DNA of 64,000 nt, taken from Bacillota bacterium. Its GTDB lineage: Bacteria; Bacillota; Clostridia; Christensenellales; DTU072. The DNA lies in assembly GCA_009781445.1 (NCBI GenBank), contig WQYD01000001.1, positions 4,960 to 68,959 of the forward strand, read 5' to 3'. The notes below the pieces were generated by a model. The model worked only from the letters and a program-made list of their open reading frames with translations. It had not been told where the DNA came from and did not search any database. Positions 1-33,793 of this stretch are shown in pieces. The position numbers were made by a program, and so were the translations under genes. The stretch's first letter is position 1. The number at the start of each line of letters is the position of its first letter.

Positions 1-1094
1 TGCGCCTCATGTATGTGGGCATGACACGCGCGCGTTACCATTTATATATAACAGGGAAAAATTCTAAAACAATTAAGCCCCGCGAAAAGGATTGTTTGGG
101 CTTTGTGGATTTTATAAATCTTGCGTCAAAAAGGAATCCGCTGATAAATAGCTATAAAGATTCTGCGCACAGCGCAGAAACAATTCAGAATTCAGAATGC
201 AGAATGCAGAATGAAGGAAGGGATTCAGCGCACAGCGCACAGCGCACAGCGCACAATGGCGGATATAATAATAAAGATTCCACCCCTATGCCCTATGCCC
301 TATGCCCTATGCCCTCAACTATTCCCTCTTCCCCAATCCCTAATCCCTCACCTATTCTTAACAAATATTCCGTTTCAGGCTTAAATGCAAGCCTTTCTGA
401 GAGCGGTTTTATGGCGGACGGAACTGCGGTGAACCGTGAAATTGCGTTTTCGGGTACTAAAACCGCGGATTTAGGTAACTCTTATCACAAGTTTATGGAA
501 CTGCATGACTTTAGTAAGCGTAGTTTTGAAGAGATTAGCCTTGAAATTGAGGACTTTGTGGCTATAGGCGCGTTTGATAGCGCGGTTAAGCCCTCTGCAA
601 AGGTACTGCATTCTGCGCTTAAGCACGAAGTATTCAAATCAACGCACAGCGCAGGATTAATTCGTGATCCAGAATTCAGAATTCAGAATGAAGGAAAGGA
701 ATCAGCGCACAGTGCACAGCGCACAGCGCACAATGGCGGATATATTAATAAAGATTCCGCCCCTATGCCCTATGCCCTATGCCCTATGCCCTCATTAAAA
801 GTCTTGCGCGAAAAACCCTTCATTCTCTATCTTCCCGCCAATTCGGTGCTTAACGGCACAGACTGTACGGATAAGGTTTTAGTTCAAGGTGTGTTTGATA
901 TGCTTATTCTTGGCGGAAAGGAAAATATTTTGATTGACTACAAGGTTACAAATGCGTCTGCTGAAGCGGTTAGGGAAAAATATAAAAACCAATTAAATCT
1001 TTACAGGCGCGGGGCAGAAATTGTGTTCGGCGTTAAAATTCACAAAGCGTATATTTTTGTTTTCGGAAGGAATGAAGCGGTAGAAGTATTTTGA
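1..1094 (+). CDS. addA: AddA-type ATP-dependent helicase/nuclease, C-terminal part (5' end lies outside the window); carries two in-frame repeat-element insertions
   Basis: The ORF is open to the window edge. MYVGMTRARYHLYITG resembles SF1 helicase motif VI. DLGNSYHKFMELHDF, REKPF, VLVQGVFDMLIL, LIDYKV and QLNLYRRGAEIVFG match the AddA/RecB-family nuclease module. Stop TGA at 1092-1094. Confidence 0.65.
   Translation, partial: RLMYVGMTRARYHLYITGKNSKTIKPREKDCLGFVDFINLASKRNPLINSYKDSAHSAETIQNSECRMQNEGRDSAHSAQRTAHNGGYNNKDSTPMPYALCPMPSTIPSSPIPNPSPILNKYSVSGLNASLSESGFMADGTAVNREIAFSGTKTADLGNSYHKFMELHDFSKRSFEEISLEIEDFVAIGAFDSAVKPSAKVLHSALKHEVFKSTHSAGLIRDPEFRIQNEGKESAHSAQRTAHNGGYINKDSAPMPYALCPMPSLKVLREKPFILYLPANSVLNGTDCTDKVLVQGVFDMLILGGKENILIDYKVTNASAEAVREKYKNQLNLYRRGAEIVFGVKIHKAYIFVFGRNEAVEVF
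165..316. repeat. Composite heptamer-array/core element, in frame inside addA: [GCGCACA] - [AATTCAG/AATGCAG]x4 - [GCGCACA]x4 - degenerate reverse core ...AAAGATTCCACC - [CCTATGC]x4
   Basis: Read directly from the sequence. Same grammar as the intergenic copies. Confidence 0.9.
641..795. repeat. Second composite heptamer-array/core element in frame inside addA, with the same module order as 165-316
   Basis: Read directly. Its translation (SAHSAQRTAHNGGYINKDSAPMPYALCPMPS) nearly duplicates that of copy 1. Confidence 0.9.
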
Positions 1095-1220
1095 GGGCGT
1101 AGGGCATAGGTTATAGGGTATAGGGGTGGAATTTTATAATATTTCCACAATTCTGAATTCTGCATTCTGAATTCTGAATTAAACCTCAATTCGTACTTTC
1201 TACTTCGTACTTCGTACTTA
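1095..1220. repeat. Heptamer-array element: [CATAGGG-like]x4 - GGTGGAAT core stub - [ATTCTGA]x4 - [TTCGTAC]x3
   Basis: Starts immediately after the addA stop. Confidence 0.9.
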
Positions 1221-1350
1221 TTCTGTTGTTTTAGCTACAGATTTAGCCAAATTTGCTATTATTCTTTAAAAAAACTATTGTACTTCTATAATACTCATGA
1301 TATAATCTTATGTGCAAGTATAAAATATATATGTGTGGAGGCGTGCGCGT

Positions 1351-3015
1351 ATGGCGTTTGTTGATAAAATTTCCGAAGTTTTAAATGAAAAGCTTGATTT
1401 TTTTGGCTTAGGCGCGCAGTATACGCCTGCTTTCTATCTTGCATTGTTTGCTACGCTTCTTGTGGTTGTGGCTTTCGTGATTGCGGTTCTTGTTAAAAAC
1501 GCGTCCGAAGCTAAAAAACTTTCTGTGCTGTTTTTAGAAGTTTCAAAAGAAGTAGACGAACTTGGGATAGTAGACGAAACTAATCTTGGAAAATTAAACC
1601 AAATCGTGGGCAAACTTCCTGCCCCTGTTTACGATGCCTTCGGCAAATTTCTTGAAGCCCCGAACGCAAGCTACCCTTCGGACTATATGCCCGATTCCAT
1701 GGTAATGAACGATCCTGTTATGGTGCCAAAGCACAAAGCGGGGCTTGGCTTGTTCCGCGGGCTAACTTCCGCATTCATAGCACTGGCAGTTATTTTTGCT
1801 TCCATAGGCGAAAGTGCGGTTTGGGGTTTTGCTGTGGAAAATGCAACCTATGTTGCGCTTTGCGTGGCTTCGGTTGTGGCGTTGCCATTTTTAATTTACA
1901 TTCCGCTTGCCGTTCTTTTAAATGCTTCCTACCGCAAACAGCTTTTGGAACTTTCGGAATCTTTTAAAGAATTAAAGCTAACCCTAAATAAGCACAATGC
2001 TTTGTGGGCGGATAGGGAAGATAAATTCGTTACCGAAAATGTGGAAGAAATTAACGCCGCGATAGAAGAAATTCTTAAAAACCGCGTGCAGAACCGCCGT
2101 ATTACCGAACTTCTTGAAGTTGAGGCAGAGGCAAGGCAAGGCGAAGATTTGGCACTTGCGGCAGTTGAGGAAGTGTTTGTTCCCGAAGAGGAATATGAAT
2201 ATGAACCTGTTCCGTTGCCCGCACCAAGAGCGGTTATTGAAGAAGAACCCGTAGTTGAAGAAGCTATTGAAGAAGTTGTTGAAGAACCAATAGTTGAAGA
2301 AGTTGTTGAAGAGGCTGTGGAAGAACCTATAGTTGAAGAAGCCACTGAAGAAGTTGTTGAAGAGGCTGTGGAAGAACCTATAGTTGAAGAAGCCACTGAA
2401 GAAGTTATTGAAGAGGCAATAGAAGAACCTGTGGCGGAAGAACCGATTGTTGAAGAAATTGCGGAAGAAGCGGTAGTTGAAGAAGTCATTGAGGAAATTG
2501 CCGAAGAACCTGCGGTTGAAGAAATTGTTGAAGAGATTATAGAAGAACCTATAGTTGAAGAAGTTGTGGAAGAACCAGTAGTTGAAGAGGTTATAGAAGA
2601 ATCCGCGCAATCTAATGACGATATGTATGCAGAGCTTCTTGGGCTTGTGGAAATTATGGATGGCTTTATGAGTGATCCGAACACCACCGCCGAACATATA
2701 ACCACCTGCCGAGGCATATTGAACGAAGCAAGGCTTAACCCGATATTTAATGAACCCTTGCCCCAACAAATCTTTGATACCTGCCTTGGAATCCTTGCAG
2801 ACGCGCCTCAGCTTAAAGAAGAAGTTACTGATCCCTATGAAGATTTACTGCAACTTGTGCAAATTGTGGACGGCTTAATGCAAGACGAAAATACCACCGC
2901 GGATCAAATTGAAGAATGCAAAGCAATTCTTTCCTCTGCCCGCCAAGGCGAAAACTTTGCCACTGAAGAAATTCAACAAATCTTTGATATTTGCTTCGGA
3001 ATCCTTGAGGGATAA
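1351..3015 (+). CDS. Membrane protein with ~3 TM segments, a long acidic (E-E-x-V/I)n repeat region and two ~60-aa C-terminal repeats; function unknown
   Basis: ATG at 1351 is preceded by GGAGG (1337-1341). Hydrophobic stretches occur near the N-terminus. The EEPIVEEVVEEAVEE repeats have 51-bp periodicity. Duplicated module: LLGLVEIMDGFMSDPNTTAEHI / LLQLVQIVDGLMQDENTTADQI. An intrinsic terminator follows. Confidence 0.7.
   Translation: MAFVDKISEVLNEKLDFFGLGAQYTPAFYLALFATLLVVVAFVIAVLVKNASEAKKLSVLFLEVSKEVDELGIVDETNLGKLNQIVGKLPAPVYDAFGKFLEAPNASYPSDYMPDSMVMNDPVMVPKHKAGLGLFRGLTSAFIALAVIFASIGESAVWGFAVENATYVALCVASVVALPFLIYIPLAVLLNASYRKQLLELSESFKELKLTLNKHNALWADREDKFVTENVEEINAAIEEILKNRVQNRRITELLEVEAEARQGEDLALAAVEEVFVPEEEYEYEPVPLPAPRAVIEEEPVVEEAIEEVVEEPIVEEVVEEAVEEPIVEEATEEVVEEAVEEPIVEEATEEVIEEAIEEPVAEEPIVEEIAEEAVVEEVIEEIAEEPAVEEIVEEIIEEPIVEEVVEEPVVEEVIEESAQSNDDMYAELLGLVEIMDGFMSDPNTTAEHITTCRGILNEARLNPIFNEPLPQQIFDTCLGILADAPQLKEEVTDPYEDLLQLVQIVDGLMQDENTTADQIEECKAILSSARQGENFATEEIQQIFDICFGILEG
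2236..2604 (+). repeat. Coding tandem repeat (51-bp / 17-aa period, EVVEEAVEEPIVEEATE) inside the acidic membrane protein
   Basis: Two perfect 51-bp copies at 2299-2349 and 2350-2400, flanked by degenerate copies. Confidence 0.85.
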
Positions 3016-3085: not shown

Positions 3086-3403
3086 AGGGGGCAGGTTGCA
3101 GGGGGCAGGTTGCAGGGTTGGAATCTAAATATCATTATGAATCAGCGCACAACGCACAGCGCACAACGCACAGCGCACAACGCACAGCGCACAGCGCACA
3201 ATGGTGGATTCTAAATCTCATTATTGAAAAGTGAAACGAGAAACATGAAACGAGAAACATGGTGGATTCTAAATATCATTATTAGTTAAATAATCCATAA
3301 TTCTACATTCTGAATTCTGAATTCTGAATTAAGCCATAATTCGTACTTCGTACCTAAAAAACAATTCCACCATTGTGCGCTGTGCGCTGTGCGTTGTTCG
3401 CTG
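3086..3403. repeat. Four tandem units: [GGGGGCAGGTTGCA]x2+core; [CAGCGCA/CAACGCA]x8+core; [GTGAAACGAGAAACAT]x2+core; [ATTCTGA]x4-[TTCGTAC]x2-AATTCCACCATT-[GTGCGCT]x4
   Basis: Cores at 3116-3138, 3203-3225 and 3261-3283. The outer GCGCACA and TGTGCGC arrays are inverted relative to each other. Confidence 0.95.
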
Positions 3404-3514: not shown

Positions 3515-6265
3515 ATGACTAAAAAGAGAATTCTAACACTAATTTTAGTTCTCGTGCTTATAGCATCTGTGGGCATGATGGCTTTCGCGTGTAACAACAA
3601 TAGCACTGGTGGCGGTCGTTGCACAGGTTGTAACAAAACCAAGTGCGATAAGTCTACCCCTAAATGCCCCGGCTACACAGAGCCAGTGGACTACATAGAG
3701 CTTCAAAACTGGGTTGAAACCCTTGTGGAAAGCCTTGATAAAACCGTGGACGCGGCAATAAGGGCAGGGCTTGACTCACAAAAGAAAGGCGGAAAGCTTT
3801 ACGCAGGTGCAACTTTCTACTTAGACCTTGTGGCGGATGCCGCAAAAGGCGAGAAAGTGGAAATGGAATTGGTTGCTAAGGGCAGATTTGATGCCGTTAA
3901 CCCCGGAAACAGCGAAGCTTTCGTGTCTGTTAACCTCGGTTCTACAATTGAAGGACTGCAAGATGTGGGCATTTCAGCCACAAAGTCCCCTCACTTTACT
4001 TTGTACGCAAAGGACGGCGATGCGTGGATTGGGCAAAAACTTCTATCGGGCGCAACAATGCAATGGTCTAAGCTAAGCCAAGGCAAGGGAAAATCACCCG
4101 CTGAAAATGTGTACTCACTTGCTTACGCGCTTTCAAATGTTCCCTCTGCTTTAGGCGGTCTTCTTCCTGAAGATGACGCAGAAGAAGGAATCTTTGATGC
4201 ACCTTTCAGCGGAATTTCTGATCTATATGTTGCTGAGAATATTCCAATGCTCAAGAGCATTAGTAATCTTGTTACCTTAATAGGTCCCCTAATGAGCTGG
4301 GCTTCCGAAATAGACGAATTTGGCGAAGAGATTGAAGGCGATCCTTTCGTGTTCGCACCTAAAGGCTACAATGGCAATAACAGCCCCGCAGGTCTTTACA
4401 CATGGAACATTGCGCTTAGCCAAATAGCAGGGCTTCTTGAGATTGTGGAAGGGCTCTTTGCCGGCGACGACGGCGATGACGACGGTGGCGGTCTTTTAGG
4501 GCTTCTTGAAGGTCTTGTGGGCGACATAAGCATGTTAGACCCGATAATTGAAGCGATTTTCAATGTGGGATTAGAGGATTTCTTAGCCGGCAAAGGCGCA
4601 GATAAGTTCCCCAGCTTGCTTGTGAATTATACGCTTGACACTAAAGGGCATATTACAGGGCTTAACTTTGTTTATGACAACATGAAAGAAAAAGACATAA
4701 GGCTTGAAATCGGCATTAAGAATCTTGAATTCTCAAGCGACACAAGCACTACAGCACACCCTGCGTTTTTAGCCCCCTCGGTTTATCAAAACGCACAGGA
4801 AACAGCAATTAAACTATCGTTTAACCTTTCCACACCAAGCAGAGAATTTGATATGCTTGTGAATGCTTATGTGTATCCTTCATTCGTGATCAATTATTGC
4901 AGTGAAGACGGTGTTTCAATTAGCATTGCAGAAGGCTTACTTGCTGAGGCGGAATTAATCTTAAACGGCGAATCGTTTGGAATAGATGCAGTTTACTATA
5001 TAAACGGCACAACAGGCTACCTTGCATTTGATCTTGCGAATGTGTTTGAGGAAATAGGCGTAGAGGCAGAACACGATATTCCCACCAAATTTATGTGGGA
5101 AGCGGATATCCGCAACCTATTCAGCTTTGTAGAGGGCTATACCGCCCCCGAAACCGTGGCACCTGTGGCTTGCGAAGAATGCGATAAAACCGCTTGCGAA
5201 TGCCCTTGCGCTAAGTGCGATACAGAACCTTGCACTTGCAAGAAGTTCGTTTCTTGGGAAACAGTGTATGTTCGTTGCGAAGAATGCGCCGAATGCATTA
5301 AGACAACCCCCGGAAATTGCTTAAAACCTGTGGCAAAAGAAGTATTTAACTGGGTACCTGAACTTAACAAAACTAACACAATTGATAAAGTTGCCGATGC
5401 GGTTAAAGATATTATTAACGGCTTCATTAAAGACGGCTTTAGCATGGGAATCATTACAGATGTGTTTGATCTTCTTGACGATATCATGGATATCGGCAAC
5501 GCAATCGGCGACATCTTTAACGACAAAGTTATCACAGATAACGGCTTATCCTTCCTTAACTTCCTTACAGGGCTTGTTTCAATCCCTATGGCGAATGAAA
5601 GCGCACTTCTTGAACACATACTTGGCGGAAAGCTCAGCACCCTTGTAGAGGCTTGTGGCGACTGCGAAGGCTGTGAAGATGACGAAGATTGCTTAGCACC
5701 TGTTCTTAAGGACAACGCAGTAGTTGATTTCATTATCAGAATCGTGGCAGAATATTCAAATATAGAACAACCTGAAAGGTTTACCTATGAAGAACTTCTA
5801 AGCATGATTTACCATGTGTTTGAACTTGAAGTTGACTTGCTTAATGCTGACGCGCTTTACATTGGCGGATACGCTTATAACCGCGGGCTTATACTAATAG
5901 GCACAGGCATGGAAATGGGCGATGCTGTTAAATTCTCAGGGCAAACCATGAGTGGCGCAGGCGCAGGAATTATCCTTCAATTAACTTGCGCTAATGTTGC
6001 CCCTAACTTCCAAGGCGGTTGTGACGGCGAAGACGAAGAATGCGAACGCTGTGGCGGTACAGGATTCTTTACAGCAATGACGGCAGGCGTAGGCTTTGAT
6101 ATCGTGGCTAAGAATAAAGGCACCGTTAAACCAGCGTTTAATGTTGGAAACTTAGCAGACTTCGTAAACCTTGGCGATCCTGAAGGATTTGATATCTTCA
6201 CCCAAGCTTTACTTGACGCTTTCAAGGTTTTCAACAACAACTACACATTTCCCGAAGTTGCATAA
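3515..6265 (+). CDS. Cys-rich lipoprotein (916 aa), first of three lipobox proteins; function unknown
   Basis: Consensus promoter at 3447-3475, GGAGG at 3498-3502. Signal peptide with lipobox MMAFAC. Four clusters of CxxC motifs (for example CEECDKTACECPCAKCDTEPCTC). Strong terminator at 6311-6340. Confidence 0.85.
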   Translation: MTKKRILTLILVLVLIASVGMMAFACNNNSTGGGRCTGCNKTKCDKSTPKCPGYTEPVDYIELQNWVETLVESLDKTVDAAIRAGLDSQKKGGKLYAGATFYLDLVADAAKGEKVEMELVAKGRFDAVNPGNSEAFVSVNLGSTIEGLQDVGISATKSPHFTLYAKDGDAWIGQKLLSGATMQWSKLSQGKGKSPAENVYSLAYALSNVPSALGGLLPEDDAEEGIFDAPFSGISDLYVAENIPMLKSISNLVTLIGPLMSWASEIDEFGEEIEGDPFVFAPKGYNGNNSPAGLYTWNIALSQIAGLLEIVEGLFAGDDGDDDGGGLLGLLEGLVGDISMLDPIIEAIFNVGLEDFLAGKGADKFPSLLVNYTLDTKGHITGLNFVYDNMKEKDIRLEIGIKNLEFSSDTSTTAHPAFLAPSVYQNAQETAIKLSFNLSTPSREFDMLVNAYVYPSFVINYCSEDGVSISIAEGLLAEAELILNGESFGIDAVYYINGTTGYLAFDLANVFEEIGVEAEHDIPTKFMWEADIRNLFSFVEGYTAPETVAPVACEECDKTACECPCAKCDTEPCTCKKFVSWETVYVRCEECAECIKTTPGNCLKPVAKEVFNWVPELNKTNTIDKVADAVKDIINGFIKDGFSMGIITDVFDLLDDIMDIGNAIGDIFNDKVITDNGLSFLNFLTGLVSIPMANESALLEHILGGKLSTLVEACGDCEGCEDDEDCLAPVLKDNAVVDFIIRIVAEYSNIEQPERFTYEELLSMIYHVFELEVDLLNADALYIGGYAYNRGLILIGTGMEMGDAVKFSGQTMSGAGAGIILQLTCANVAPNFQGGCDGEDEECERCGGTGFFTAMTAGVGFDIVAKNKGTVKPAFNVGNLADFVNLGDPEGFDIFTQALLDAFKVFNNNYTFPEVA

Positions 6266-6513: not shown

Positions 6514-9500
6514 ATGCGTACGCGCTCATTTACAAGGCAAGTTTTTAAAACCGTTGCCGTAGTGTTATCTGCGCTATTTTTGCTTACCATAATTTCTGCT
6601 TGTTCGCCCTATTTAAGCGGTGCGAAAGATAGATTTCCCATAGATCACGATAATAATGAAAATAAGGTTGTTCACCAATATCCCGAACATTCAGACGAAA
6701 GGCGCAATGCGGTTATTGATAGGGCAATCGGCGCAATGGATAATTTGCTTGTTCACCTTGATTCAATTGAAACCTCTGAAACGGGATATTCAATAGGCGC
6801 GGAAATTTTTATAAACACTTATGACGATATTCCTGCGGAAAGATCCGCATTTAAATTAAACCTTCGTGCAAACCTTTACACCTATCCTTACGAAGAAACG
6901 GACGCAGACGGTAACATTATCATGGAATATAGGAAAAGGGACGGCAAACCCCTTTTACCGGGGCAACTTTTACCGGGGAATATGTACCGCGATGAGTACG
7001 GCGAATTGGTAAAGGCGCAAGAACGCCCCATGGTAAACCAAGCTGCGCTTAAAAAGCATAACGAATTGATTAAATATAACGATATTATCCTTGAATGGTA
7101 TGACGCCGTGAACAATCAGCTTATGATAGGCTTTTATTTTGACGGCATAAATCCTAATTCCGCCGATCCGGGGAATAATCTCTATCTTAACCTCTTGGGC
7201 GATAAGCGCAAATTTGAGAACTTCGGCGACACGGTGCTATATCAGCAAATCGTAAGGCTTATCACCAAATTTAATTTAAACACCCTTGTGGGCGGTGTGT
7301 CCGGTGGCGATAATAGCACGGTAGACGATATCAGCACGCTTTTAAGGCTTTTTGTAAGCACCAATTACAAGGAAACGATAAATGACGATGTAACTTCGCT
7401 TTATTTCCACGATGTGGATTTGTTTTACATTGTGGACGATATTACCACTTACATGAGAAGTTTCTTCGCGCCGTTTGAAGATAAACTTGATCCGCTTTCA
7501 AATAAATACCTTGGGTTTAGGCTTTCCACCCTCGGCACGGCGCAAATTGCAAGCCTTGCCACGGATATGCGCTTTTTAGTAAGCACCCCCCGCCAAGCCG
7601 TGGGCGAAATTTTAACGGGGCTTGAACTTGATTTAAGGGGCGTAAGCCGTGTAATGAAAGGCACAATTCAAGATACGGTTGATTTTACTTCTCAAATGAA
7701 ATTTGAATATAACTTGCGCGTTTCCACCGATATAAGAATTGAAAATAAGCAAGAATATAAACTTTACGAACACGGACAATATGAATTTACCGCAGATCTC
7801 TATGTTCCTTTTATTGATTTGAGGGCAGACGGGCTTTTGAGAACAGATGTTAACAGCTATGATAACAGCAAAAACCGCGTGTTCATGGAATTTTACGACA
7901 AAACTAATAACGAAGTTCTAATAGGCGCGTATTATACTAACGAACTTACATATTTAAACATAACAAACCTGCAAGCCCTGTACGGCGGTATAAAATTTGA
8001 GGATATAAATTTGCCGAAGGCTTATAGAGGTGGTTTCAATTTATCCGATTTGCTTAAATTCGTGGGGGATTTTTTAGACGAATACATAGTGCTTTTCGTG
8101 GATAACCTGCTTTACAATGACGATGACGAATCTTACGCTAATTTAACCAAAACGATAATGGACAACATGGAATCCACCATGATTGATCCCGATGTTCCCG
8201 AATCGCGGAACACAATCCGCTTAAGGCTTAACATGGAATTGCTTCGCGCCGTAATGAAAGAAATGAGTGATGACGGCACGGAATATACAAATGATCAAAT
8301 GGTGGGAATGCTTAACGAAATGTTTGGCATAGATATTGAAACAATTGCCGCGCTTATGGGTGTGAATGTGAAAACACTCATGGATAGCATTTATTTTGAT
8401 ATAACTTACGATGTGGATGAGTACACAATAAAAATAGAAGTCTTTACCAAGGAAACAAATCCGCAAGGCGATCTTATGCTAAGGTTAATCCTTACCCCCA
8501 TTAAAATGGGTGAAAGCGTGGTTATCAGCTTCCCAAGTTTTGAAGGCTTTTTACCGCTTTTACCGATAAGGACTTATAGCGGAAATATTGAAGGGCAAAT
8601 CCTTTTTGCAAGCACGGAAGAAGTTGATCTTTCTGCACTTCTTGGTGCATTTGTGGGGGATTTAAGCGGGCTTAACACCCATTACATTCTTCCTGCCGAA
8701 GCCAAAATTGCTTTTACCGCAGGTTACGATCAATATATCCGTGATCAAATTCTTGAAAACGGCAGGTGGACGCGCGCAGGGCGATCTGCCTTCGCGGTTT
8801 CTTTCTTTGCCGTGGACGCCTCAAACAACCGCACAGAAATTATACGGCTTTATGCCAATGATGTCCGCTTTGATACTTCCGCGCCAGTGGAAGAATTTGG
8901 CTATGTGTGGGTGGATTTAATTTGCGTGCCTAATTTCCCGCGCGTGAAAATCCGTGAAGATTTGTTCATGCAATCCCTTTACCTTTATTTAAATCCAGAC
9001 GGGGTTCTTTTGGACGACATGAATTTAACAGTGGGCTTAACCACGGTTATGAATGTGCTAATGGAAGATTCTTGGGTTTCCTTTGAACCCGATGTTATGC
9101 GGATTACAACTTCTAACCAATTATTTAAGGATTTCTTCCGTGTAGACGAACTTATTGCCACGGTGGAACTTCAGCTTGGATTTAAGCAACGCGTGCGCAA
9201 TATAGACGAATTTGAACACCAATTCGCAATGTACACGGTGGGGCATTTTTCAGATATTCAGGGCAATTCACCTTACTCAATAAGGCTTCACCCCACAATC
9301 CCAGTTTATTTTGATTTCGGAAACCGCATTGAACTTAGAGATTTCTTTGTGCTTTACCACCCCAATTCAGTGGAAGTCCTACCCGGCAAGGGGCAGGCGG
9401 ATAATCCTTACTTCCCCACGCTTGACGGGCTTTTCATGGGCGTGTCGCGCACATATAGGGTGCTCGTTACAGGCACGCAGGACGGCGCGCGCGCAAGCAT

Positions 9501-12500
9501 TAACGAACTTGTGGTTAAATATTATAACGATTGGGAACCGCTTACAGGCAGTTTCCCTCAAACTGTTACCGCCACTTACGGTGCTTCAAACCAAGTTGCC
9601 ACATATAACGCGGACTTTGAATTTTACGCATATTTTGATCGCGCCACGGGATATTACATTGTTCCGAATAAACTTGGATACATTGTGCTTTACGATTATG
9701 AAAATAATTGCTACATAGCGGATTTGGGCATAAACGCCAAGTTTGATAAACTTTACGAACATTTGGAAGCAGACGGCATACCGATTTATCAAAGAGTTAT
9801 CCGTGATTTAAACTTTAACGAATATTTTTATGTGGTAGACAGCGAAATTTTTGGTTGGTACATTCTTAAAAATAACAATATCCGCATGATGTACAACATG
9901 GCGGAAGATTTTTACTTAATTTACAGCGAATCTCAGCTTAACCAAGCAAGGCAAATTCTTGCTAATAACAATGCGGATATCCGCTTTGTGGTAAGCACAA
10001 TTTCTGTGGCTTCGGGCGGAAATGTTACTGAGTACGACACAACCCACGAATTTACCTCAGGCTTAAGGCTGGTAAGCACAAACCTTGGCTTCCCTGTGCT
10101 TTACGCTTACGATCCGCTTACAAATTCTTCACGGTTTTATGTGGAATTTCAACATGAAATGTCTTCCGCACTTAACCTTTTCCCTGCAAGCGTAACGGTT
10201 AACACAGATATAAATTGGCAGATTATTGATTTTAACGGCGAAAAATGGGACAATTCAGATTGGGTAGACGCGCGTTTTTGGGCAATAGAACACAAAACCG
10301 AATTCTCGTGGGAAGACATGACTCTTGAGGGCGGTTTATTCATTGTAGAAGTTATCATAGGTAAAGGCATGATGGCAACTTACCGTGAACTCGTGCGTGC
10401 GCTTGTGCTTAACAGGACTATTGTTCCTATCGGCATGGCTTCAATCTTAATTGAAAACCCCGAAGCAGAGGGCGGTTACGAAAGAGTTTTAGTTCCTGTG
10501 ATTGATTCCGTTACGGTAGATCCTTATGCTTTCACCCTTTTAAGGGCGGATTATGAGAATAATTTAAGGATTCCGAGGGAATATCAACCCGAACTTTTAA
10601 ATAATTTTGTGAGGTGGTTCTTTAGCTTTTATGTGGTTTCCATGCACTTCACCGTGATTTATGACGATCCTGCTTACGATACCCGCAGTGAAATAAGGGC
10701 GCACCTTTGGGATTTTGAAGTTTACAATAAGGACAAGAGTGCTTATAAAGAATCCGATATTAACAACGCAGGGAACTTTACTTCCATAACTTATGTGGTG
10801 GCTTACTTCCACGGACAGCGCATTGCACTTCAAATTATCGTTCCGCCAAGGACTATTGCCGTGGCGGATAGCGGTGATTCCAAGATTATGTTCGCGGGCG
10901 AAAAGCGGTTTGGCGAATATACCGTGGACGCACTTTTGGAAGAAACTTATAAATTACCCCAAAAACCCACAATATATTTCACCCAAAGAGATTCAGACGG
11001 ATACGAACTAACTCTTAATTTAAATGATTTTTCACGCAGTGCAAGCACGGTGTTTGCGTCCTTACCCGCAGGGCTTAACATGAGTCGCAATTCTATCGGT
11101 TTGCATTCATTAGTGTCCTGCGTCATTAGTGATTGCTATCAATGCGATAGAGGCATGGGGGTAAATTACCCCGTCCGCAGTGATTCCATAAATTGGTCTA
11201 ACCCTGTGGCAGACAATGTGTATCTTGCAGGAAATGACGGAAAACCGTTCTTAACAAGCGGTACTAACACCACAACCGCGTTTTTTGATTTAAAAAACCA
11301 TGTAGATCCTCTTGGCATTTGGTTTAGCGATGTTTGGCGCAATCCTTTGCTTCGCTTAAGCGTGTTTGTGCCTGATAAGATTGTGGGCAAAATAGATGTT
11401 TCTCACGGCGGTGCGGTTCTTCCCGATAAAGCGTCTAACCTAACTGTGGGTAACGAAAGCAAAAGGGGCGTGCATTATGTGAACCCTTACGATATGAGTA
11501 CATGGGAAATCCCCACGGATTTAACGGTTTACTTCAATCCTGCCGAAGCAGGCGATCCTTATGACGCTAAAAATTACGAAATTTCGTGGAAATTGGAAGA
11601 CGAAAGCGGAAATGCGTACGATTTCATTGAATATAGGAACGGCAGATTCTATGCAACTCAAAACTTTATAGCAAGTTCAGATTCCTTTACCCACCGCGTG
11701 CTTAGGGCGGTAATCGGAAATGAAGGCGCATTAAGCCCGGACGGTGGCGCAATGTTTATTGTGCTTGAAGTGGTGCTAATTAAAGAATCCGCAGTGGTGG
11801 AAAACTTTGCTTACCTTGCTAAGGACGGCACTCACATAATGCTTTCGGCAGGGCTTGGGTTTGATAACAGCGCGCTTCTTGCACCGCCTTTCTATCAATA
11901 CGATCCTGCTAACCCCGAAAAGGTATCGCACATTTATGAGGTTGATACCCACCACAGGTTTGAAATTCCAAGTTTTGTGAGAGTTAAGTTTAATGACGGA
12001 ACTGTGCGGATTTTCAGCGCAAAGTGGACTAATCCCGAATCACCGTTCGCCCCAAATTCAATAAACACCATTCTTACCACAATAGGAAATCCTTTCTTTA
12101 GCGCAGAAATTCCGTTGACTATTCATGTGGCTAACAGGGCAGGGAATTACATAGAAGAAATTGAATTAAGAGATAATACAGACGATAATCTTCTTGGAAA
12201 GCACGGAATTGATTATATTGTGAACCATGACGCAAAGCGGATAGACATTTCGGGCGTTGTGTTCACAAATGACAGGATTAACGGCTTAAGCCCCTATCAG
12301 TTCTTTATGTTTTTATTCTCAAATGTGTATGTTAAACTTACGCCCCAAATTCTAAGCGGTGGTTACGACACGAATTTTGATAGCTTAATCGGAACAGAAA
12401 CGGTTATGAAAGATTTAATGCTTTGGAATGACGATCACAGATATTCCGCTTTCTGGCAAACGCTTTTAACCTTTGATTCACAAAAAATGATAGAAGATTT

Positions 12501-15378
12501 CTTGGGGCAAAGGCTGATTATATACTTCGGGCAGGGCGCAGGGGCAGACGATTATACCGTTTACTTCCATGCCACAGGAATCCCTGTGCTTGAAGGGGGC
12601 GCAATAGAGGAAATCACAGTGTTCCCCTTTGATCCTGCCACAGGCGCAAGCAATTATGAGGACGGGGACGGCTTCGTGTTTGCAAGGGATATTGAACTTA
12701 ACATTAAATATTTCGGGCAAGACTTAAGTTTAGTGCAAACCCCCGAAGTTTGGTATGTGGGCGCACCTGAGGGAATAGACGCGGTTACTTCGGGTTCGGT
12801 AATCCCCGCAGGCACGGCACTTACCATGATAACCAAGGACGAACTTGTGGCAATAGGCAGATATATTTGGATAACCACAATGCTTAGTGATTCTTCAAGG
12901 GTTTACCGCAAAATTAACATTGAGGGCGTTATGCTTGATTTGTTCAATTCCGTGGCTGATATTAACGATCCGAATAACCCTCTTGTGATAAGAAACAGCA
13001 CAATAGTTATAGATAATATTTATGCGGTTCTATGGGCAATAAGGAATATATCAAATGACAGCATTCCTAAAAATATCCGCTTTGCAGGCAGTGAAGCCAC
13101 AATTAGGGTGCTAAATTGGAACTTAAACGCAGAAACCGCAGGATTACTGAGAAACAGCGTTAATTATTTAACAAATTGGCAAGACGAACCGCGCTTGCTT
13201 GCAACCGCTGAAATCTTTGGCGAAACTTTAAAACTTTTCGTGGTGATTCTTCCCACGGAAATAGGCGGTATAGGGCTACACAGCGCGGTGGATTCCACGC
13301 GAAGTTTTGAATCCGAATTAGACGAAGACGGCGTTATCGCAGTGTACATAGACGCATACCATAACCGCGGATATAACGGAAACTTCACGCTACCTTTAAA
13401 TAACTTAAGGCTGTTCTTTATTGATCCGAACAGTAACAATAATCAGCTTTATAACGATCCTTGGATTTATAACGGTGCGACATATCAATCAGTTGCCCTT
13501 GGCATTAACATAACCGCCATAAGGTATAACTACAGCGGAATAATAGGTGATTTAGAGAACGGTATAAGCCGTGTAACGGTAACATTCACCATGCCTTGCG
13601 GTTTGCAAACTGTTACCGTTAGGTTTAACTTCCCCCCTAAAATCGTGAGTGAAATCAGTGTGGAAAACCCCATAGATAGCCTTAACCGCGGTAGAGGGGA
13701 ATATGAGATTGATCCTTACAGCGCAAGAATTCTAAATCACGAAGTAACCGTGTATTTCCAAGACGAAGCTATCGGCGGATATTATAAACCTTACGAATAC
13801 ACCGTTCCTCAGTGGATAGTACCAAGTGATTATGAACTTCTTTATAACACTTATGACAAGGTTTTAAAGGAAAGAGTAAATGATTACTTTGCGTTAACCG
13901 CAAACCTGCTTGGCGGTTCGCCCTCAGCCAACCAAATTTCAGCGCAAACGCTTAATTTAAAGGTGTTTGTGGTGGATAGGCTGTACACGGATTGGCGGTT
14001 CAGATCACAAAGCGCAGGGCTTACCTTAGCCGATACGCTTATCTCAGATTCTGATAACCCTAACGCTTTATATCATTACACGAACCCCTTTGAGGGCAGG
14101 GCAAACGATATGCCCCATGATATATTCGGCACAAACGGCGGAATAGCGAACACAACCTACCCCGTATCATGGGAATTTTATGACGAAAATATCCACAGCA
14201 ACGGTACTAACGGATTTAGGCTTGTACGCGGTACGGTTTACGGGCAGGGCGGGCAACAGGTTACCATAAGGGTTTATATTGATAATTGGGGCATTACCGC
14301 AATCAGCCGTGTGGTAAACGGTTCGCCGATAATTATAGATAGCAGTGATTACCGCTTCTTCTTTAGGCCTGATGACGGGCTTTGCAATGACTTAGTGTTC
14401 CAAGTAAGAATGCGCAAATTAAGGTATGACATAACAAAAGGGACACTGATGGACGCAATTTTTGAGGCAGAATTGTTTTATGCGCACGCAAGCGATGCGC
14501 CTGCGCATAGGAAAGATTACCTTATGCGTTGGGATTCTCAAGCCCTTTTAACCGCAAGCCAAGGAAATATGACTCAAGCCACAGGGCGCGTGGCACTAAT
14601 GGACGCTGACGGCAGAGAAAAGCTGTTAATAACCACGCAAGGGGTTTATCAGTACGAAACCATGAGGATAAACCACATCAATCTTGGATTCGGCGGTACA
14701 ACCGCACAACCGATTAACGGTGGCGGAATTGCAGGAAATCCCGTTTTTGCTGAATACAATGTGCTTTATGTGGTTAATCCGCTTAATATTAACTTCGCGC
14801 TTACCACCGTGGAAGCCTTCGGCGAAAGGCACGGTGTGCTAAATCAAAGCCTTGGCACTGCCACCATAAATTGGAACGGAAACTACGGCACAGGATATTG
14901 GGATAACCCAAGAAACAGAGAACAGTACTTAACAGGCGGTATATTTAACGGCTATAGGATTGAGTTAACCCTTAACTTTCAATTTAACACTTATGAACCC
15001 CAAGGCTTTAGAATCATGCTTGTGTTCCTTGATATGTCCCCCGAACCCACGGTGATTCATTCGGGTTACACTATTGATAATATACCCTTCATAAGCCAAG
15101 GTATGCCAAAGATTACATACCACGCGGAAACATATCTTGGGGTGGCTAACAGCCCTTATATCGTTAATTATTCCGCCCCTGTGATAGACGCATTAAACCT
15201 TGCAAGAAGCACGCTTCTTTCACCCACTTATCAAGTGTCAATACAAATAATATCTTGGCGCGATAATGAATTCCCGCCTAACCCCATTACCACGCGAAGA
15301 TTAGTTCGTTCGCGGACGGTTTCAATAAACGGAATTGTTTACAATTCGGGGATAGCAAGCCTGCAATTTGTGCCGTAA
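6514..15378 (+). CDS. Giant lipoprotein (2954 aa), putative cell-surface protein; function unknown
   Basis: Uninterrupted 8.9-kb ORF. N-terminal signal peptide with lipobox IISAC. Repeated beta-rich segments with motifs such as IPSFVRVKFNDGTVRIFSAKW. No catalytic motif recognised. Confidence 0.9.
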   Translation: MRTRSFTRQVFKTVAVVLSALFLLTIISACSPYLSGAKDRFPIDHDNNENKVVHQYPEHSDERRNAVIDRAIGAMDNLLVHLDSIETSETGYSIGAEIFINTYDDIPAERSAFKLNLRANLYTYPYEETDADGNIIMEYRKRDGKPLLPGQLLPGNMYRDEYGELVKAQERPMVNQAALKKHNELIKYNDIILEWYDAVNNQLMIGFYFDGINPNSADPGNNLYLNLLGDKRKFENFGDTVLYQQIVRLITKFNLNTLVGGVSGGDNSTVDDISTLLRLFVSTNYKETINDDVTSLYFHDVDLFYIVDDITTYMRSFFAPFEDKLDPLSNKYLGFRLSTLGTAQIASLATDMRFLVSTPRQAVGEILTGLELDLRGVSRVMKGTIQDTVDFTSQMKFEYNLRVSTDIRIENKQEYKLYEHGQYEFTADLYVPFIDLRADGLLRTDVNSYDNSKNRVFMEFYDKTNNEVLIGAYYTNELTYLNITNLQALYGGIKFEDINLPKAYRGGFNLSDLLKFVGDFLDEYIVLFVDNLLYNDDDESYANLTKTIMDNMESTMIDPDVPESRNTIRLRLNMELLRAVMKEMSDDGTEYTNDQMVGMLNEMFGIDIETIAALMGVNVKTLMDSIYFDITYDVDEYTIKIEVFTKETNPQGDLMLRLILTPIKMGESVVISFPSFEGFLPLLPIRTYSGNIEGQILFASTEEVDLSALLGAFVGDLSGLNTHYILPAEAKIAFTAGYDQYIRDQILENGRWTRAGRSAFAVSFFAVDASNNRTEIIRLYANDVRFDTSAPVEEFGYVWVDLICVPNFPRVKIREDLFMQSLYLYLNPDGVLLDDMNLTVGLTTVMNVLMEDSWVSFEPDVMRITTSNQLFKDFFRVDELIATVELQLGFKQRVRNIDEFEHQFAMYTVGHFSDIQGNSPYSIRLHPTIPVYFDFGNRIELRDFFVLYHPNSVEVLPGKGQADNPYFPTLDGLFMGVSRTYRVLVTGTQDGARASINELVVKYYNDWEPLTGSFPQTVTATYGASNQVATYNADFEFYAYFDRATGYYIVPNKLGYIVLYDYENNCYIADLGINAKFDKLYEHLEADGIPIYQRVIRDLNFNEYFYVVDSEIFGWYILKNNNIRMMYNMAEDFYLIYSESQLNQARQILANNNADIRFVVSTISVASGGNVTEYDTTHEFTSGLRLVSTNLGFPVLYAYDPLTNSSRFYVEFQHEMSSALNLFPASVTVNTDINWQIIDFNGEKWDNSDWVDARFWAIEHKTEFSWEDMTLEGGLFIVEVIIGKGMMATYRELVRALVLNRTIVPIGMASILIENPEAEGGYERVLVPVIDSVTVDPYAFTLLRADYENNLRIPREYQPELLNNFVRWFFSFYVVSMHFTVIYDDPAYDTRSEIRAHLWDFEVYNKDKSAYKESDINNAGNFTSITYVVAYFHGQRIALQIIVPPRTIAVADSGDSKIMFAGEKRFGEYTVDALLEETYKLPQKPTIYFTQRDSDGYELTLNLNDFSRSASTVFASLPAGLNMSRNSIGLHSLVSCVISDCYQCDRGMGVNYPVRSDSINWSNPVADNVYLAGNDGKPFLTSGTNTTTAFFDLKNHVDPLGIWFSDVWRNPLLRLSVFVPDKIVGKIDVSHGGAVLPDKASNLTVGNESKRGVHYVNPYDMSTWEIPTDLTVYFNPAEAGDPYDAKNYEISWKLEDESGNAYDFIEYRNGRFYATQNFIASSDSFTHRVLRAVIGNEGALSPDGGAMFIVLEVVLIKESAVVENFAYLAKDGTHIMLSAGLGFDNSALLAPPFYQYDPANPEKVSHIYEVDTHHRFEIPSFVRVKFNDGTVRIFSAKWTNPESPFAPNSINTILTTIGNPFFSAEIPLTIHVANRAGNYIEEIELRDNTDDNLLGKHGIDYIVNHDAKRIDISGVVFTNDRINGLSPYQFFMFLFSNVYVKLTPQILSGGYDTNFDSLIGTETVMKDLMLWNDDHRYSAFWQTLLTFDSQKMIEDFLGQRLIIYFGQGAGADDYTVYFHATGIPVLEGGAIEEITVFPFDPATGASNYEDGDGFVFARDIELNIKYFGQDLSLVQTPEVWYVGAPEGIDAVTSGSVIPAGTALTMITKDELVAIGRYIWITTMLSDSSRVYRKINIEGVMLDLFNSVADINDPNNPLVIRNSTIVIDNIYAVLWAIRNISNDSIPKNIRFAGSEATIRVLNWNLNAETAGLLRNSVNYLTNWQDEPRLLATAEIFGETLKLFVVILPTEIGGIGLHSAVDSTRSFESELDEDGVIAVYIDAYHNRGYNGNFTLPLNNLRLFFIDPNSNNNQLYNDPWIYNGATYQSVALGINITAIRYNYSGIIGDLENGISRVTVTFTMPCGLQTVTVRFNFPPKIVSEISVENPIDSLNRGRGEYEIDPYSARILNHEVTVYFQDEAIGGYYKPYEYTVPQWIVPSDYELLYNTYDKVLKERVNDYFALTANLLGGSPSANQISAQTLNLKVFVVDRLYTDWRFRSQSAGLTLADTLISDSDNPNALYHYTNPFEGRANDMPHDIFGTNGGIANTTYPVSWEFYDENIHSNGTNGFRLVRGTVYGQGGQQVTIRVYIDNWGITAISRVVNGSPIIIDSSDYRFFFRPDDGLCNDLVFQVRMRKLRYDITKGTLMDAIFEAELFYAHASDAPAHRKDYLMRWDSQALLTASQGNMTQATGRVALMDADGREKLLITTQGVYQYETMRINHINLGFGGTTAQPINGGGIAGNPVFAEYNVLYVVNPLNINFALTTVEAFGERHGVLNQSLGTATINWNGNYGTGYWDNPRNREQYLTGGIFNGYRIELTLNFQFNTYEPQGFRIMLVFLDMSPEPTVIHSGYTIDNIPFISQGMPKITYHAETYLGVANSPYIVNYSAPVIDALNLARSTLLSPTYQVSIQIISWRDNEFPPNPITTRRLVRSRTVSINGIVYNSGIASLQFVP

Positions 15379-15435: not shown

Positions 15436-18400
15436 ATGAAAAAAACCCTTAAGCCCACAATACTAATTCTAATTACGCTTGTTTTAGTGCTTGCGCTTTT
15501 TGCGTGTGCTAATGACGGCGCAGGAAGCGGGGACGACTTCGTGGGCGGTAGCGGTTCAGGCCCTGTGTATAACCCACCCACGCAAAGCGAAATCATTTCA
15601 AAAATTAACCAAGGAATAAGAAACGGCGCAGAAGTGGCAGACGAATCGGTAAGATTCGTTAAAAGTGAATATACCTTTATTGTTCAGCCACGGATAAATG
15701 TTACGATAAGGTACGAAGCTAACTATAATTTAAATATTCGGCAGGACAGCGAATTTTTACTCAAAGTTACCAATAATGAAACCGCCGTTAACTCGCTGTT
15801 CTTTTGGTATAGGCACGGCAATTTATATTATCAATTTAACGATATCCGCATAAGGGAAACCGTGCCGATTGTGGGCAGTAACCCCCCAAGGCAGGAAAAC
15901 ACAGGCAGAGAATTTGTGGGAAGCCGAATTGAAGGCTTTGGCGGTGAAATTGCGTTTAACCTCTTTTTCACACTAATGAGGTTATTTGATTTGGATTCAT
16001 TCTTCTTTGCCGATCCTGATTTGTTTGATGTGAATGACGAATTTCCAGATGAACTCAATGATTTCAGCATGGATACATTTGCAGGATATGTGGCTTCAAT
16101 TATCGGAATGGCGGAAGATAAAAGCATATCAAGCCTTGAAGTAAGCCATGATAGAGAGGTTATCAATATCACAAATGTGGTTGTGGATAATTTAAAGGAT
16201 CGCATTAACAGGTTTTTAAGAGATTCCGTGAGGGACGGGCTTGGCACACGGCTTGACGCTTTAACCACAATACTATTCGGCTTCAATATATCCGATATAG
16301 GATTAACCGCAATTAACACCTTAAATGCGCAAAAAGTAAGCGTTATTCTTGAAAATGAAACGGTTAAGCAGGTGGATATTCTGTTTAACGGCGTTCAATC
16401 AAATAATATTGATAACTTCTCATTATCAATGCACTATGAAATCGGCACAGGTGCAAAAGCTATCAATCCGCCCGCGCTGGACGATCCAAGGAATGAAAAG
16501 AATATTTACGAACCCGTCCGCCTTGGGGAATTCCATTATGTGGGTACGGTTTACATTGATTCAATAGACGAAACATTTTTCTCAGAAATCAAAGGCAATT
16601 TAAACCCTTACGATAATATGCTTAACAGCTTTCTTGTGGATATAAGAAACAGAAGCGTTGGGTTAGATTCAAGTAGCCCCTTTTATAGGGACGATAGCAT
16701 TGCTTCGCTGTTTTTCAAAAATGAAATTTTGTTCATAGGGCTTGAGGGCTATATGAATAATTATATGACTAATAGTATTGCCCTTAAAGATTTAGGCTTA
16801 CCCAATGTAGCCTTTGCAGGGGTAGACACAGCTTCAATATTCAGTTCGCTTTTATCTTCAGTGATTCAGTTTTCTTCCGTAAGTTTAAGCCCTATGGCTT
16901 TGCTTTCACTTCTTTCGGTAGACGCAGGCACGGACAATGGGCTTTCCGTTCTTCTTTCCAAAATTAACACGGTAGACGGCACTAAACTTGAAATCACCAT
17001 TGATAAAGAACTACTTGAAATTTTACTTGAGGGTGATTCCTCTTTAAGCCTGACTTCATTCTTCACAAACCTCACAGGCATAACCCCTGCAATGGCGGAA
17101 AGCCTAATCGGTGGCGGAATGTTTGATAACTTGGTGCTGATTTACCGCTACGATTATGTAACGAAAGATATTGAACTTCAAATCAATTCAGGCAATGAAA
17201 GGCTTTGCATATTCTATCTTACCGCACAAAAGATAACGCTTGAATCGGGGCAAACTTCGTTTGAATTTTCCGCGCCCGAAGGGTTTAATGAAAATGATTA
17301 CGGCGCGTTTGTTCCGCCTGCGACAGTTGCGTTAAGAATGGATATTGAAATGCAACTTCAAGGTGTGGAAATTCAAAACCTATCCCAATTATTCGGCGCG
17401 CTTATCGGCGATAATTCGGGCAAAAATTCCCCCTTTGATTTCAGAATCGGGGATAAGCTATTTATTGAAACCGACATTTGGCTTGTGGGCGAGGATACTT
17501 ACCTTAAAGCCATGTTCTATTTACGCAGAGGCAATTGCACTGATTGCGATAAAACTATAAATGCAAATGAAAAGCTATGCTTAATTAACCCTTACATAAA
17601 CATTTTAAACATTTACACCCTTTCCACAAATGCGGATATCCTGCTTGTGGAAGTAAAAGCCATGCAGGGGTTACCCGAAATCAGTTTTAGGATACCCAAA
17701 AGCGTGGTTCAAGAACAGTTAAGTGAAGTTCAGGGCGAAAAAGGTGCTGGATTATTTAACACAGGAAGCGTTATGGATATCTATAATCTTCTGTTAAGAG
17801 AAAGTTCATATTACTTAATGGAAGACGAATATATAAGGTTTGCCCTAACCCCCGATATGCTTGACGGTGTGGGCAGAGATCCAGTAAGAGATATTATCGG
17901 CATAAGCGGATTTACGGCTGTGTTTAACGCGTCTATCAAATTCAATATGCCCAATGCGCTTTATAACGGAAATGAAAATAAGTTCGTTGTGCCAGAAGCA
18001 ATTATGCTTAACGATTTAGCGTTTGACAGCATTTACGAAGCCTATTGGCAAACTCACGCAGAGATTTCTTTCGGCGCGGAAAGGTTTTTATTTGAACTTT
18101 CGTTTACCGAAGATTCCGCTAAGTTAATATCGGGCGTGTTTCATTACAGCCCTAAAGCAAGGTTATTTGGCTTAAATGTGGGCTATGTAATGATTTTAAG
18201 AGATATTGAAAACGGCACAAAGTACATAGACGCCCTTCTTGAATACACCATTCTTATTGATCCTGCCGAAGAAAACCCCATTCCCGAAACGGTGGTGGTA
18301 AGGTACGATGACGGAACAACAGGACGGCAAAGTTTTGTCCTTGAGGGCTTTTCTTACACCGAAGATAATATTAAAAACGCAATGAACGGCGTGCCACCGA

Positions 18401-27072: not shown

Positions 27073-27207
27073 CAGCGCACAGCGCACAATGCACAGCGCA
27101 CAGTGAAGGATTAATTCAGAATTAAGAATTCAGAATGCAGAATTGTGGATTGATTAACTAATAATGAGATTTAGATTCCACCATTGTGCGCTGTGCGCTG
27201 TGCGCTG
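27073..27207. repeat. [CAGCGCA]x4 - [AATTCAG-like]x4 - reverse core (27159-27182) - ATT - [GTGCGCT]x3; fills the whole convergent intergenic gap
   Basis: It begins at the base after the stop of the 3878-aa gene. The terminal arrays are inverted and could pair into a ~25-bp stem. Confidence 0.95.
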
Positions 27208-27215
27208 AAAATTCA

Positions 27216-32657: not shown

Positions 32658-32998
32658 AAAGGGCATAGGGTTTAGGGCATAGGGCATAGGGGTGGATTCT
32701 AAATCTAATTAATAATTCCGCAAGAACCCCGCAGGGGTGAAATGTGCATAACCCCGTGCAAGCGAAAGCGTAGCGCGGGGAAATGGAACAGAATATGATT
32801 CTATAAAAAACACCGCCCCCTTCAGCCATGGGCTGAAGGGGGCGGTGTTTTGATTTGTGTGTGGCTTATGCCGTTTGTGCCGTGGGTTTCACCCACGGTT
32901 ATGCAAATCGCGCCCCTTTGGGGGCTTTATGCGGATTGACTAATAATGAGATTTAGAATCCACCCCTATGCCCTATGCCCTAAACCCTATGCCCTTTA
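32658..32998. repeat. Large composite palindrome: ~65-bp inverted arms ([CATAGGG/TTTAGGG]x4+core) flanking GC-rich imperfectly inverted segments and a central terminator hairpin
   Basis: The left arm (32658-32722) is close to the reverse complement of the right arm (32930-32997). Cores at 32691-32713 and 32941-32964. Confidence 0.9.
32805..32852. terminator. Bidirectional intrinsic terminator (17-bp stem) at the centre of the composite palindrome
   Basis: CACCGCCCCCTTCAGCC-ATG-GGCTGAAGGGGGCGGTG, flanked by A6 and T4. Confidence 0.85.
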
Positions 32999-33764: not shown

Positions 33765-33793
33765 TGGATATTCGCGTGCGCGTATGGTACAAT
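33765..33793 (+). promoter_or_regulatory. Extended -10 promoter (TGGATA-17-TGgTACAAT) for the 2027-aa gene
   Basis: TG at 33785-33786 and TACAAT at 33788-33793. Confidence 0.45.

Follow-up and report, generated by a model that had tools for sequence, protein, structure and literature searches.

Heptamer-repeat blocks in the addA reading frame of a Bacillota bacterium: probably a selfish modular element carried in frame

How does a gene for double-strand-break repair come to carry tandem 7-nucleotide (nt) repeats within its reading frame? The question is raised by the left end of a 64,000-nt stretch of contig WQYD01000001.1 from an uncultured Bacillota bacterium (hereafter, the window), where the 3′ end of addA contains two blocks of heptamer arrays of a kind that also recurs between genes. 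We consider it probable that these blocks belong to a lineage-specific, selfish modular repeat that has become part of the reading frame, is most likely translated as unstructured loops, and is tolerated by the protein. The blocks were probably acquired selfishly or neutrally and not for a function.

Both window blocks are assembled from ~31-nt heptamer arrays (GCGCACA, AATTCAG and CCCTATG) and a hairpin core, as in intergenic regions (Table 1). Tandem Repeats Finder (TRF) located period-7 arrays at 182-213, 226-255, 284-315, 670-689, 703-732 and 761-792, plus a degenerate one at 319-348, whose position is analogous to that of the CACCAAT array following the CCCTATG array in an insert of the neighbouring gene addB. 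A preliminary description of the locus had placed two elements at ~165-316 and 641-795; the blocks are real, but insert 1 reaches ~350 by including the fourth, degenerate array, and insert 2 spans exactly 642-794. As that description had noted, both are read through without stops and give near-duplicate peptides, the copies being 91% identical over 152 nt; peptides encoded by the insert repeats include DSAHSAQR, TAHNGGYNNK and DSTPMPYALCPMPS. Its further statement that the coding and intergenic copies share one module order is only loosely true, in that the building blocks are common to both while their order differs and the coding copies have a linker of their own, AATGAAGGAAAGGAATC. What it had called a degenerate reverse core is the short variant of the hairpin core, present between genes as well (e.g., GGTGGAATTTTATAATATTTCCACAA at about 1127-1152, just 3′ of the addA stop codon).

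Table 1 Repeat-derived features in and next to the addA 3′ end (window coordinates)
Feature	Position	Strand	Remarks
addA 3′ end	3..1094	+	last 363 codons plus stop; helicase motif VI and RecB-type nuclease domain
Insert 1	165..350 (end ~350)	+	replaces native linker, motif VI to KxSVS; peptide AHSAETIQNSECRMQNEGRDSAHSAQRTAHNGGYNNKDSTPMPYALCPMPSTIPSSPIPNPSPI
Insert 1, two-unit GCGCACA array remnant	165..178	+	1 mismatch
Insert 1, AATTCAG/AATGCAG array	180..213	+	about 4.6-4.9 units
Insert 1, coding-type linker AAGGAAGGGATT	214..225	+	part of ...NEGRDS
Insert 1, GCGCACA array	226..255	+	4.3 units, perfect
Insert 1, short hairpin core ATGGCGGAT-ATAATAATAAAG-ATTCCAC	256..283	+	two truncated cores fused head-to-head
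Insert 1, CCCTATG array	284..315	+	4.6 units, perfect
Insert 1, degenerate fourth array, CTAATCC-like	319..348	+	78% matches; borderline call
Insert 2	642..794	+	51 codons, just before REKPF strand of nuclease domain; peptide THSAGLIRDPEFRIQNEGKESAHSAQRTAHNGGYINKDSAPMPYALCPMPS
Insert 2, AATTCAG array	667..689	+	about 3 units
Insert 2, coding-type linker GAAGGAAAGGAAT	690..702	+	...NEGKES; 1 mismatch to linker consensus
Insert 2, GCGCACA array	703..732	+	4.3 units, one substitution
Insert 2, short hairpin core ATGGCGGAT-ATATTAATAAAG-ATTCCGC	733..760	+	GGCGGA/TCCGCC stem predicted
Insert 2, CCCTATG array	761..792	+	4.6 units, perfect
Intergenic element of the same family, adjoining addA stop	1094..1220	-	folding z=-3.1

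Comparison with orthologues separated the two blocks. Insert 2 is missing from 25 of 25 orthologues and constitutes a true net insertion of 44-51 amino acids (aa): the interval from GTxxH to RExPF measures 111 aa versus an orthologue median of 67 aa (range 48-79). Insert 1, in contrast, replaces native sequence instead of lengthening it, with ~62-66 repeat-derived residues standing in a linker that varies in length among orthologues; motif VI and KxSVS lie 110 aa apart, as compared to a median of 111.5 aa in 24 orthologues (range 50-147), i.e., there is no net gain. The addA insert designated A comprises 68 aa where Bacillus subtilis AddA has 7 aa, and the positions occupied by inserts vary or are missing in orthologues and in B. 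subtilis AddA. When the window fragment was modelled with AlphaFold, the nuclease core obtained predicted local distance difference test (pLDDT) values >90, residues 49-114, 236-250 and 252-260 fell below 50, and the insert 2 block averaged 41-56 across residues ~221-260, consistent with the inserts forming low-confidence loops in the model.

The gene itself is intact. Frame 3 of the plus strand is open from position 3, with its stop codon at 1092-1094, encodes the C-terminus of AddA and extends beyond the left edge of the window; all the C-terminal motifs by which it had initially been recognised are present (MTRAR, DLGNSYHKFMELHDF, REKPF, QGVFDML..IDYK and QLNLY), as is GNSYHKF in the nuclease domain. 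Pfam alone lent weak support to the AddA assignment of this fragment, but a profile built from it and two orthologues matched residues 865-1229 of B. subtilis AddA (3U44_A) at E=4e-20, and the top Foldseek matches of its AlphaFold model were the AddA chains 4CEH_A, 4CEI_A and 3U44_A. On contig L009, which holds the full addA gene, the Pfam domains UvrD-helicase and UvrD_C were found and the open reading frame (ORF) runs uninterrupted for 3945 nt through four repeat blocks. The full-length protein (P0007; 1314 aa), the last 363 residues of which are identical to the window translation, matches 3U44_A at E=7e-80 and keeps all helicase motifs (GSGKT, DEYQD, VGDPKQAIY, LHKSKGLEFP and MTRAR), so that a disrupted upstream part, which would have marked addA as a pseudogene, is not what we find. 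Despite the inserts, all ten invariant residues of a 26-sequence AddA C-terminal alignment are retained; the nuclease residues E270, D299, D312, K314, Q330 and Y334 are invariant in a 26-sequence alignment. As judged from the sequence, the catalytic motifs of AddA are intact.

The two blocks in the window are part of a larger set, the count in the preliminary description having fallen short: there are four inserts in addA, one in addB and others in five more proteins of the same genome. The four addA blocks lie at residues about 79-140, 735-790, 1005-1070 and 1165-1216 and comprise roughly 13 heptamer arrays. Directly upstream, and overlapping the start of addA, addB (L009 2..2152) encodes a protein with an AddB-type C-terminal Cys motif (P0008, named ‘PD-(D/E)XK nuclease family protein’) that contains one repeat block. 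A first protein search returned only two AddA orthologues plus four unrelated proteins that matched via the insert peptide alone, namely NFACT (two inserts), a radical-SAM enzyme activating pyruvate formate-lyase (PFL), dihydroorotase and asparagine synthase. Five proteins, with P0007 as the best match, were hit by the insert 2 peptide in a HMMER search of 1.8 billion cluster representatives, and the representative search added AddB and a glycoside hydrolase (GH)-like protein as insert carriers. When an 82-aa composite insert peptide was put through a word-index protein search, nothing scored, probably owing to low complexity or to the limits of the word index. The dihydroorotase insert measures 45 aa where Staphylococcus aureus 3GRI has 9, and that of the PFL-activase, immediately after the CxxxCxxC loop, 80 aa where Escherichia coli PflA (3C8F) has 7. 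All insert-bearing proteins derive from one NCBI metagenome-assembled genome (MAG; ‘Firmicutes bacterium’, MCL2629888-MCL2631387), with AddA, AddB and the PFL-activase on one 137-kb contig, and identity between the addA and addB copies is 89-93%.

Between genes, the repeat family is abundant. GCGCACAGCGCACA (≤1 mismatch) occurs 35 times in the window versus 0.02 expected and CCCTATGCCCTATG 12 times versus 0.01 expected; arrays plus core recur at about 14 intergenic loci of the window, and 73 arrays were found in about 131 kb of scanned DNA from the host genome. The basic unit consists of an array of ~31 nt (4.3-4.6 heptamers) abutting the hairpin-forming core GGTGGAWTCTAAATCTCATTATT, or of its mirror image; intergenic units are joined in series in either orientation, and the core comes in a long (about 52 nt, self-complementary) or a short (about 26 nt) form. 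At least ten heptamer types are used, among them GCGCACA, AATTCAG/AATGCAG, CCCTATG, CCTGCAN, GAAACGA, AAGTACG, ATATAAA, AAGTCGT, GTTGCCT and CACCAAY.

The copies within genes differ from these in ways that bear on translation. All 11 coding sites, in 7 genes, keep the frame and lack stops. Because each 21 nt of a 7-nt array takes in all three frames, the encoded peptide is the same 7-mer in circular permutation, irrespective of the frame (GCGCACA giving AHSAQRT, AATTCAG NSEFRIQ and CCCTATG PYALCPM), and an array can be tolerated in a gene only if its heptamer is free of stops in every phase. This holds for the forward orientations of GCGCACA, AATTCAG, CCCTATG, CCTGCAN and CACCAAY, in which every coding array is found, whereas stops arise when AATTCAG, CCCTATG and CACCAAT are reverse-complemented. 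Moreover, the arrays in genes are joined not by the 24-26-nt core, which contains stops and yields modules of 55-57 nt, but by the 14-16-nt linker AATGAAGGAAAGGAATC (NEGKES), which yields modules of 45 nt, i.e., 15 codons. Across the ~131 kb scanned, this linker is confined to coding copies, and these end in head-to-head truncated cores (ATGGCGGAT...ATTCCRCC) followed by a CCCTATG or CCTGCAN array. By these features the coding copies form a distinct, codon-phased subfamily. Perfect arrays make up 19 of the 32 in coding sequence versus 2 of 41 between genes (Fisher p=5e-7), and the cleaner state of the former is in keeping with the coding-competent variant having spread recently.

Between inserts 1 and 2, 13 codons are changed, 12 nonsynonymously and one synonymously, for about 120 nonsynonymous and 33 synonymous sites. 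The insert peptide thus appears to evolve without purifying selection, with the open frame alone being maintained, which favours a selfish or neutral origin over recruitment for a function. We infer the following course of events. A dispersed repeat would enter variable loops or linkers of proteins, and only stop-free heptamer orientations would survive in genes; replacement of the stop-containing core by the NEGKES linker would create a 15-codon module that can be duplicated without breaking the frame; and the resulting coding-competent subfamily would spread to addA (four sites), addB (one) and at least five other proteins, the addAB cluster arising via local copying. The clustering suggests local copying, and is most simply explained by it together with the tolerance that a large multi-domain protein offers. 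The idea, raised as an alternative in the preliminary description, that the blocks are tolerated loops of repeat-derived protein sequence gains support from the apparent integrity of AddA, the variability of the insert sites in orthologues and the low pLDDT predicted for the inserts.

Several points weigh against this reading. Insert 1 has displaced the region of a conserved [FW]xYP[YH] motif, by which AddA may be impaired rather than unaffected. The low pLDDT is weak evidence for loops because segments without alignment support always score low. The boundaries of the two inserts come from the orthologue alignment and a length comparison. Target-site duplications were not seen at the six coding insert boundaries inspected. 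Nor did a Pfam scan of gene-like ORFs ≥120 aa, which left out overlapping and antisense ORFs, detect a transposase in the window. Five addAB sites in 6.1 kb, as against zero in the remaining ~110 kb of coding DNA (genes used to fetch loci set aside) is odd for a purely neutral process, although the comparison is biased, detection having been seeded with an addA insert. Finally, mobility and timing are only inferred, because the orthologues are distant, the family was not found in GTDB representatives, JGI metagenomes or IMG/VR, and there are no empty sites to compare.

A more far-reaching proposal, which we regard as speculative and rather unlikely, is that the family represents an undescribed kind of modular mobile DNA, in which heptamer arrays of fixed length (~31 nt, or roughly three helical turns) combine with a small core and a codon-phased, stop-free 45-nt module amplifies inside genes. 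The concentration in addAB may then reflect a mechanistic link with end-processing, the element being mobilised via break repair, for instance, or weakening an enzyme that would restrict it; a functional link of the clustering to break processing may exist. The cores, including those at 256-283 and 733-760, begin with (A)TGGTGG or TGGCGG. We take this start to resemble the proteobacterial Chi sequence GCTGGTGG, and the element is concentrated in the genes for AddAB, presumably a Chi-recognising enzyme, but this may be coincidence. If the addAB clustering is no detection artefact, it poses the question of whether the elements interact with double-strand-break processing.

That AddAB and the other enzymes have recruited the insert peptides functionally—e.g., as flexible tethers, interaction sites or regulatory loops—appears unlikely. 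Such recruitment would account for the concentration of five sites in one two-gene complex and for insert 1 being a same-length stand-in for the native linker, the PMPY of the insert lining up, coincidentally or not, with the conserved YP[YH]. Against it stand the excess of nonsynonymous over synonymous changes between the addA copies, the presence of the same peptide in functionally unrelated enzymes, and the fact that the peptide sequence is fully set by the DNA repeat.

The preliminary description had also raised the possibility of addA being a contingency locus, in which a single heptamer gained or lost by slipped-strand events in any array would reversibly frameshift the gene and switch double-strand-break repair, such that, e.g., recombination is raised or lowered or DNA uptake favoured. 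Formally this is possible, given that the 7-nt unit is no multiple of 3 and lies inside a reading frame, that most coding arrays are in the perfect, i.e., most slippage-prone, state, and that intergenic arrays of 22-58 nt, two of them doubled GCGCACA arrays, indicate gain and loss of units over evolutionary time. However, the evidence runs largely the other way, and we consider such a switch improbable. The heptanucleotide tract of Haemophilus influenzae hmw1A/hmw2A comprises 13-24 units and lies in the promoter of a surface adhesin (PMC8262952); it shares with the present arrays a 7-nt unit whose copy number could alter expression, but the tracts described here have only 4.3-4.6 units (~4.4), are located within housekeeping genes and do not vary in length between two assemblies. 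Of the coding arrays, 30 of 32 are 28-34 nt long, and arrays accumulate point substitutions without changing length. Across addA, the two assemblies, from ENA and NCBI/JGI, are base-identical, though possibly from the same sample; 1.2 kb downstream, a 51-nt repeat sets them apart by 69 nt, and one substitution separates them in asparagine synthase. Phase variation is not plausible for the genes of dihydroorotase, PFL-activase and asparagine synthase, which contain the same arrays, and reversion would be improbable where one gene holds about 13 independent tracts. The heptamer tracts are a frameshift hazard and no demonstrated switch.

Removal of the inserts before the mature protein is made, by excision from the mRNA, ribosome bypass or protein splicing, is very improbable and was rejected: the core could form a small mRNA hairpin (predicted for insert 2), but 11 of 11 coding sites are in frame, stop-free and built of 15-codon modules, which would be unneeded were the inserts removed, no Rfam family matched anywhere in the window (gathering thresholds), and neither an intron nor an intein would fit into blocks this small, which also lack the motifs of either. 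Equally improbable, and likewise rejected, is mis-assembly of repeats into addA or decay of the gene, for which one could cite the single MAG as source, the contigs that end inside addB in both assemblies, as expected of repeat-rich DNA, and the [FW]xYP[YH] region lost at insert 1, but which is contradicted by the same sequence in a 137-kb NCBI/JGI contig and a 31-kb ENA contig, by the 3945-nt ORF with its catalytic motifs, and by a respect for frame that an artefact would not show 11 times out of 11. The two assemblies end at nearly the same point of addB (716 versus 703 residues kept; the annotation lists P0008 as partial). Another repeat block at that point would be expected to produce such a break, and addB may thus hold more than one insert.

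In behaviour, the closest known system would be the Rickettsia palindromic elements (RPEs), which insert in frame into many unrelated genes (reviewed in PMC10969869). Like the present family, these are short (about 100-150 bp) dispersed repeats found in frame in unrelated housekeeping genes as well as between genes, adding a conserved peptide without destroying the protein (PMC10969869). Unlike RPEs, the elements described here reside in an uncultured gut-type Bacillota rather than an alphaproteobacterium, with no sequence relationship to be expected, and consist of heptamer arrays plus a small core, the coding copies not being palindromic. To our knowledge, the 15-codon modular design has no counterpart among RPEs. 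If our reading is true, the family would show for a second time, independently and with another architecture, what is known from RPEs, namely selfish repeats that enter essential genes and persist as protein sequence, and its codon-phased design would illustrate a route by which a non-coding repeat becomes compatible with translation and then a source of new protein loops. On the practical side, such arrays break assemblies and inflate the share of ‘novel’ low-complexity regions in MAG proteomes.

In architecture, the closest analogy is probably with the cyanobacterial STRR heptamer repeats and small dispersed repeats (SDRs), which reportedly (attributed to Elhai et al. 2008) comprise tandem heptanucleotide arrays of few units flanking a hairpin-forming core of ~21-27 nt. 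These too are modular and nested and highly repeated within one lineage, but phylum, heptamers and core are all different. We know of no report of a codon-phased coding STRR/SDR subfamily or of multiple insertions into DNA-repair genes, and the interest of the family lies mainly in the coding-adapted module and its multiplicity in addAB. With MITEs (miniature transposable elements with inverted repeats) and BOX, REP/BIME and Correia elements, the family shares being non-coding, multi-copy, hairpin-forming and often located beside terminators. Yet neither target-site duplications at the boundaries inspected nor, in the window, a cognate transposase were seen, and termini made of tandem heptamers of near-constant length are atypical of MITE inverted repeats; the family is not a demonstrated MITE.

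In the collections scanned, the family did not turn up beyond its host genome. A 21-mer from the core had no match in 185,579 GTDB species representatives, and a looser 20-mer had four, one per contig, versus an estimated ~9 expected by chance, the sole one inspected (L004) being without arrays. IMG/VR returned nothing real for the core, the GCGCACA array or the AATGCAG module, and a literature search on heptamer strings found nothing relevant. JGI metagenomes, scanned with AddA-derived peptide patterns rather than the core, yielded no close AddA orthologue but only a 30%-identical AddA (L006) and two array-only matches (L007 and L008); among AddA orthologues, even the nearest share only about 20-32% identity with the window fragment. 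The array-only matches (L007 1738-1769 and L008 3677-3750) are intergenic (AATGCAG)x4.3-4.6 arrays followed by an AAYGARGGA linker, on unrelated GC-rich metagenome contigs, and in L008, just upstream of a gene start, the array makes up one arm of an inverted-repeat hairpin. They match the window family in copy number and linker, suggesting that such modules exist in other phyla.

Individual intergenic copies vary in layout and folding. The element adjoining the addA stop codon reads, in minus-strand order, AAGTACG array, AATTCAG array, short hairpin core and CCCTATR array. Strong hairpins with inverted arrays are found at 27068-27210 (z=-8.6) and 46083-46232 (z=-9.2), whereas the coding copies fold no better than shuffled sequences (z=+0.4 and -1.0). 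Likewise, terminal inverted repeats are present in some copies (27072-27207, 46087-46232 and 32660-32995) and not in coding ones. The last of these, a MITE-like unit, has inverted termini, each formed by a CATAGGG array plus core, that enclose about 230 nt; its interior contains two GC-rich hairpins, one of them terminator-like, and terminator-like hairpins flank the unit on both sides. Doubled GCGCACA arrays occur at 3143-3200 (8.3 units) and 40096-40146 (7.3 units), with GCGCACA and ACGCACA alternating at a 14-nt period; arrays can therefore expand via multi-unit duplication. Directly 3′ of the 7.3-unit array, which reads TGTGCGC and forms with its core the element at 40089-40146, lies a gene of the RmuC family (DNA recombination; 40160-41341). 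At 3086-3403 and 63681-63840, three array-plus-core modules each are strung together with a period of ~55-57 nt (24-nt constant core and 31-nt variable array), superficially like a miniature CRISPR array with heptamer repeats as ‘spacers’; the window is without cas genes.

Two further features of the window lie outside the heptamer family. An acidic, E/V-rich repeat protein with 39/51-nt tandem repeats is encoded at 1333-3015 (L009 6350-7963), and measures 560 aa in the window versus 537 aa in the ENA assembly owing to the 69-nt difference; its repeat is the only one to differ between the assemblies in their overlap, reflecting either real copy-number variation or assembly collapse. Four large ORFs (3515-6265, 6514-15378, 15436-27072 and 33692-39931; 916, 2954, 3878 and 2079 aa) are free of heptamer arrays and without Pfam match, except for Beta_helix at the end of the 3878-aa ORF. 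They probably encode giant surface proteins, since the 916-aa protein starts with a lipoprotein-like signal.

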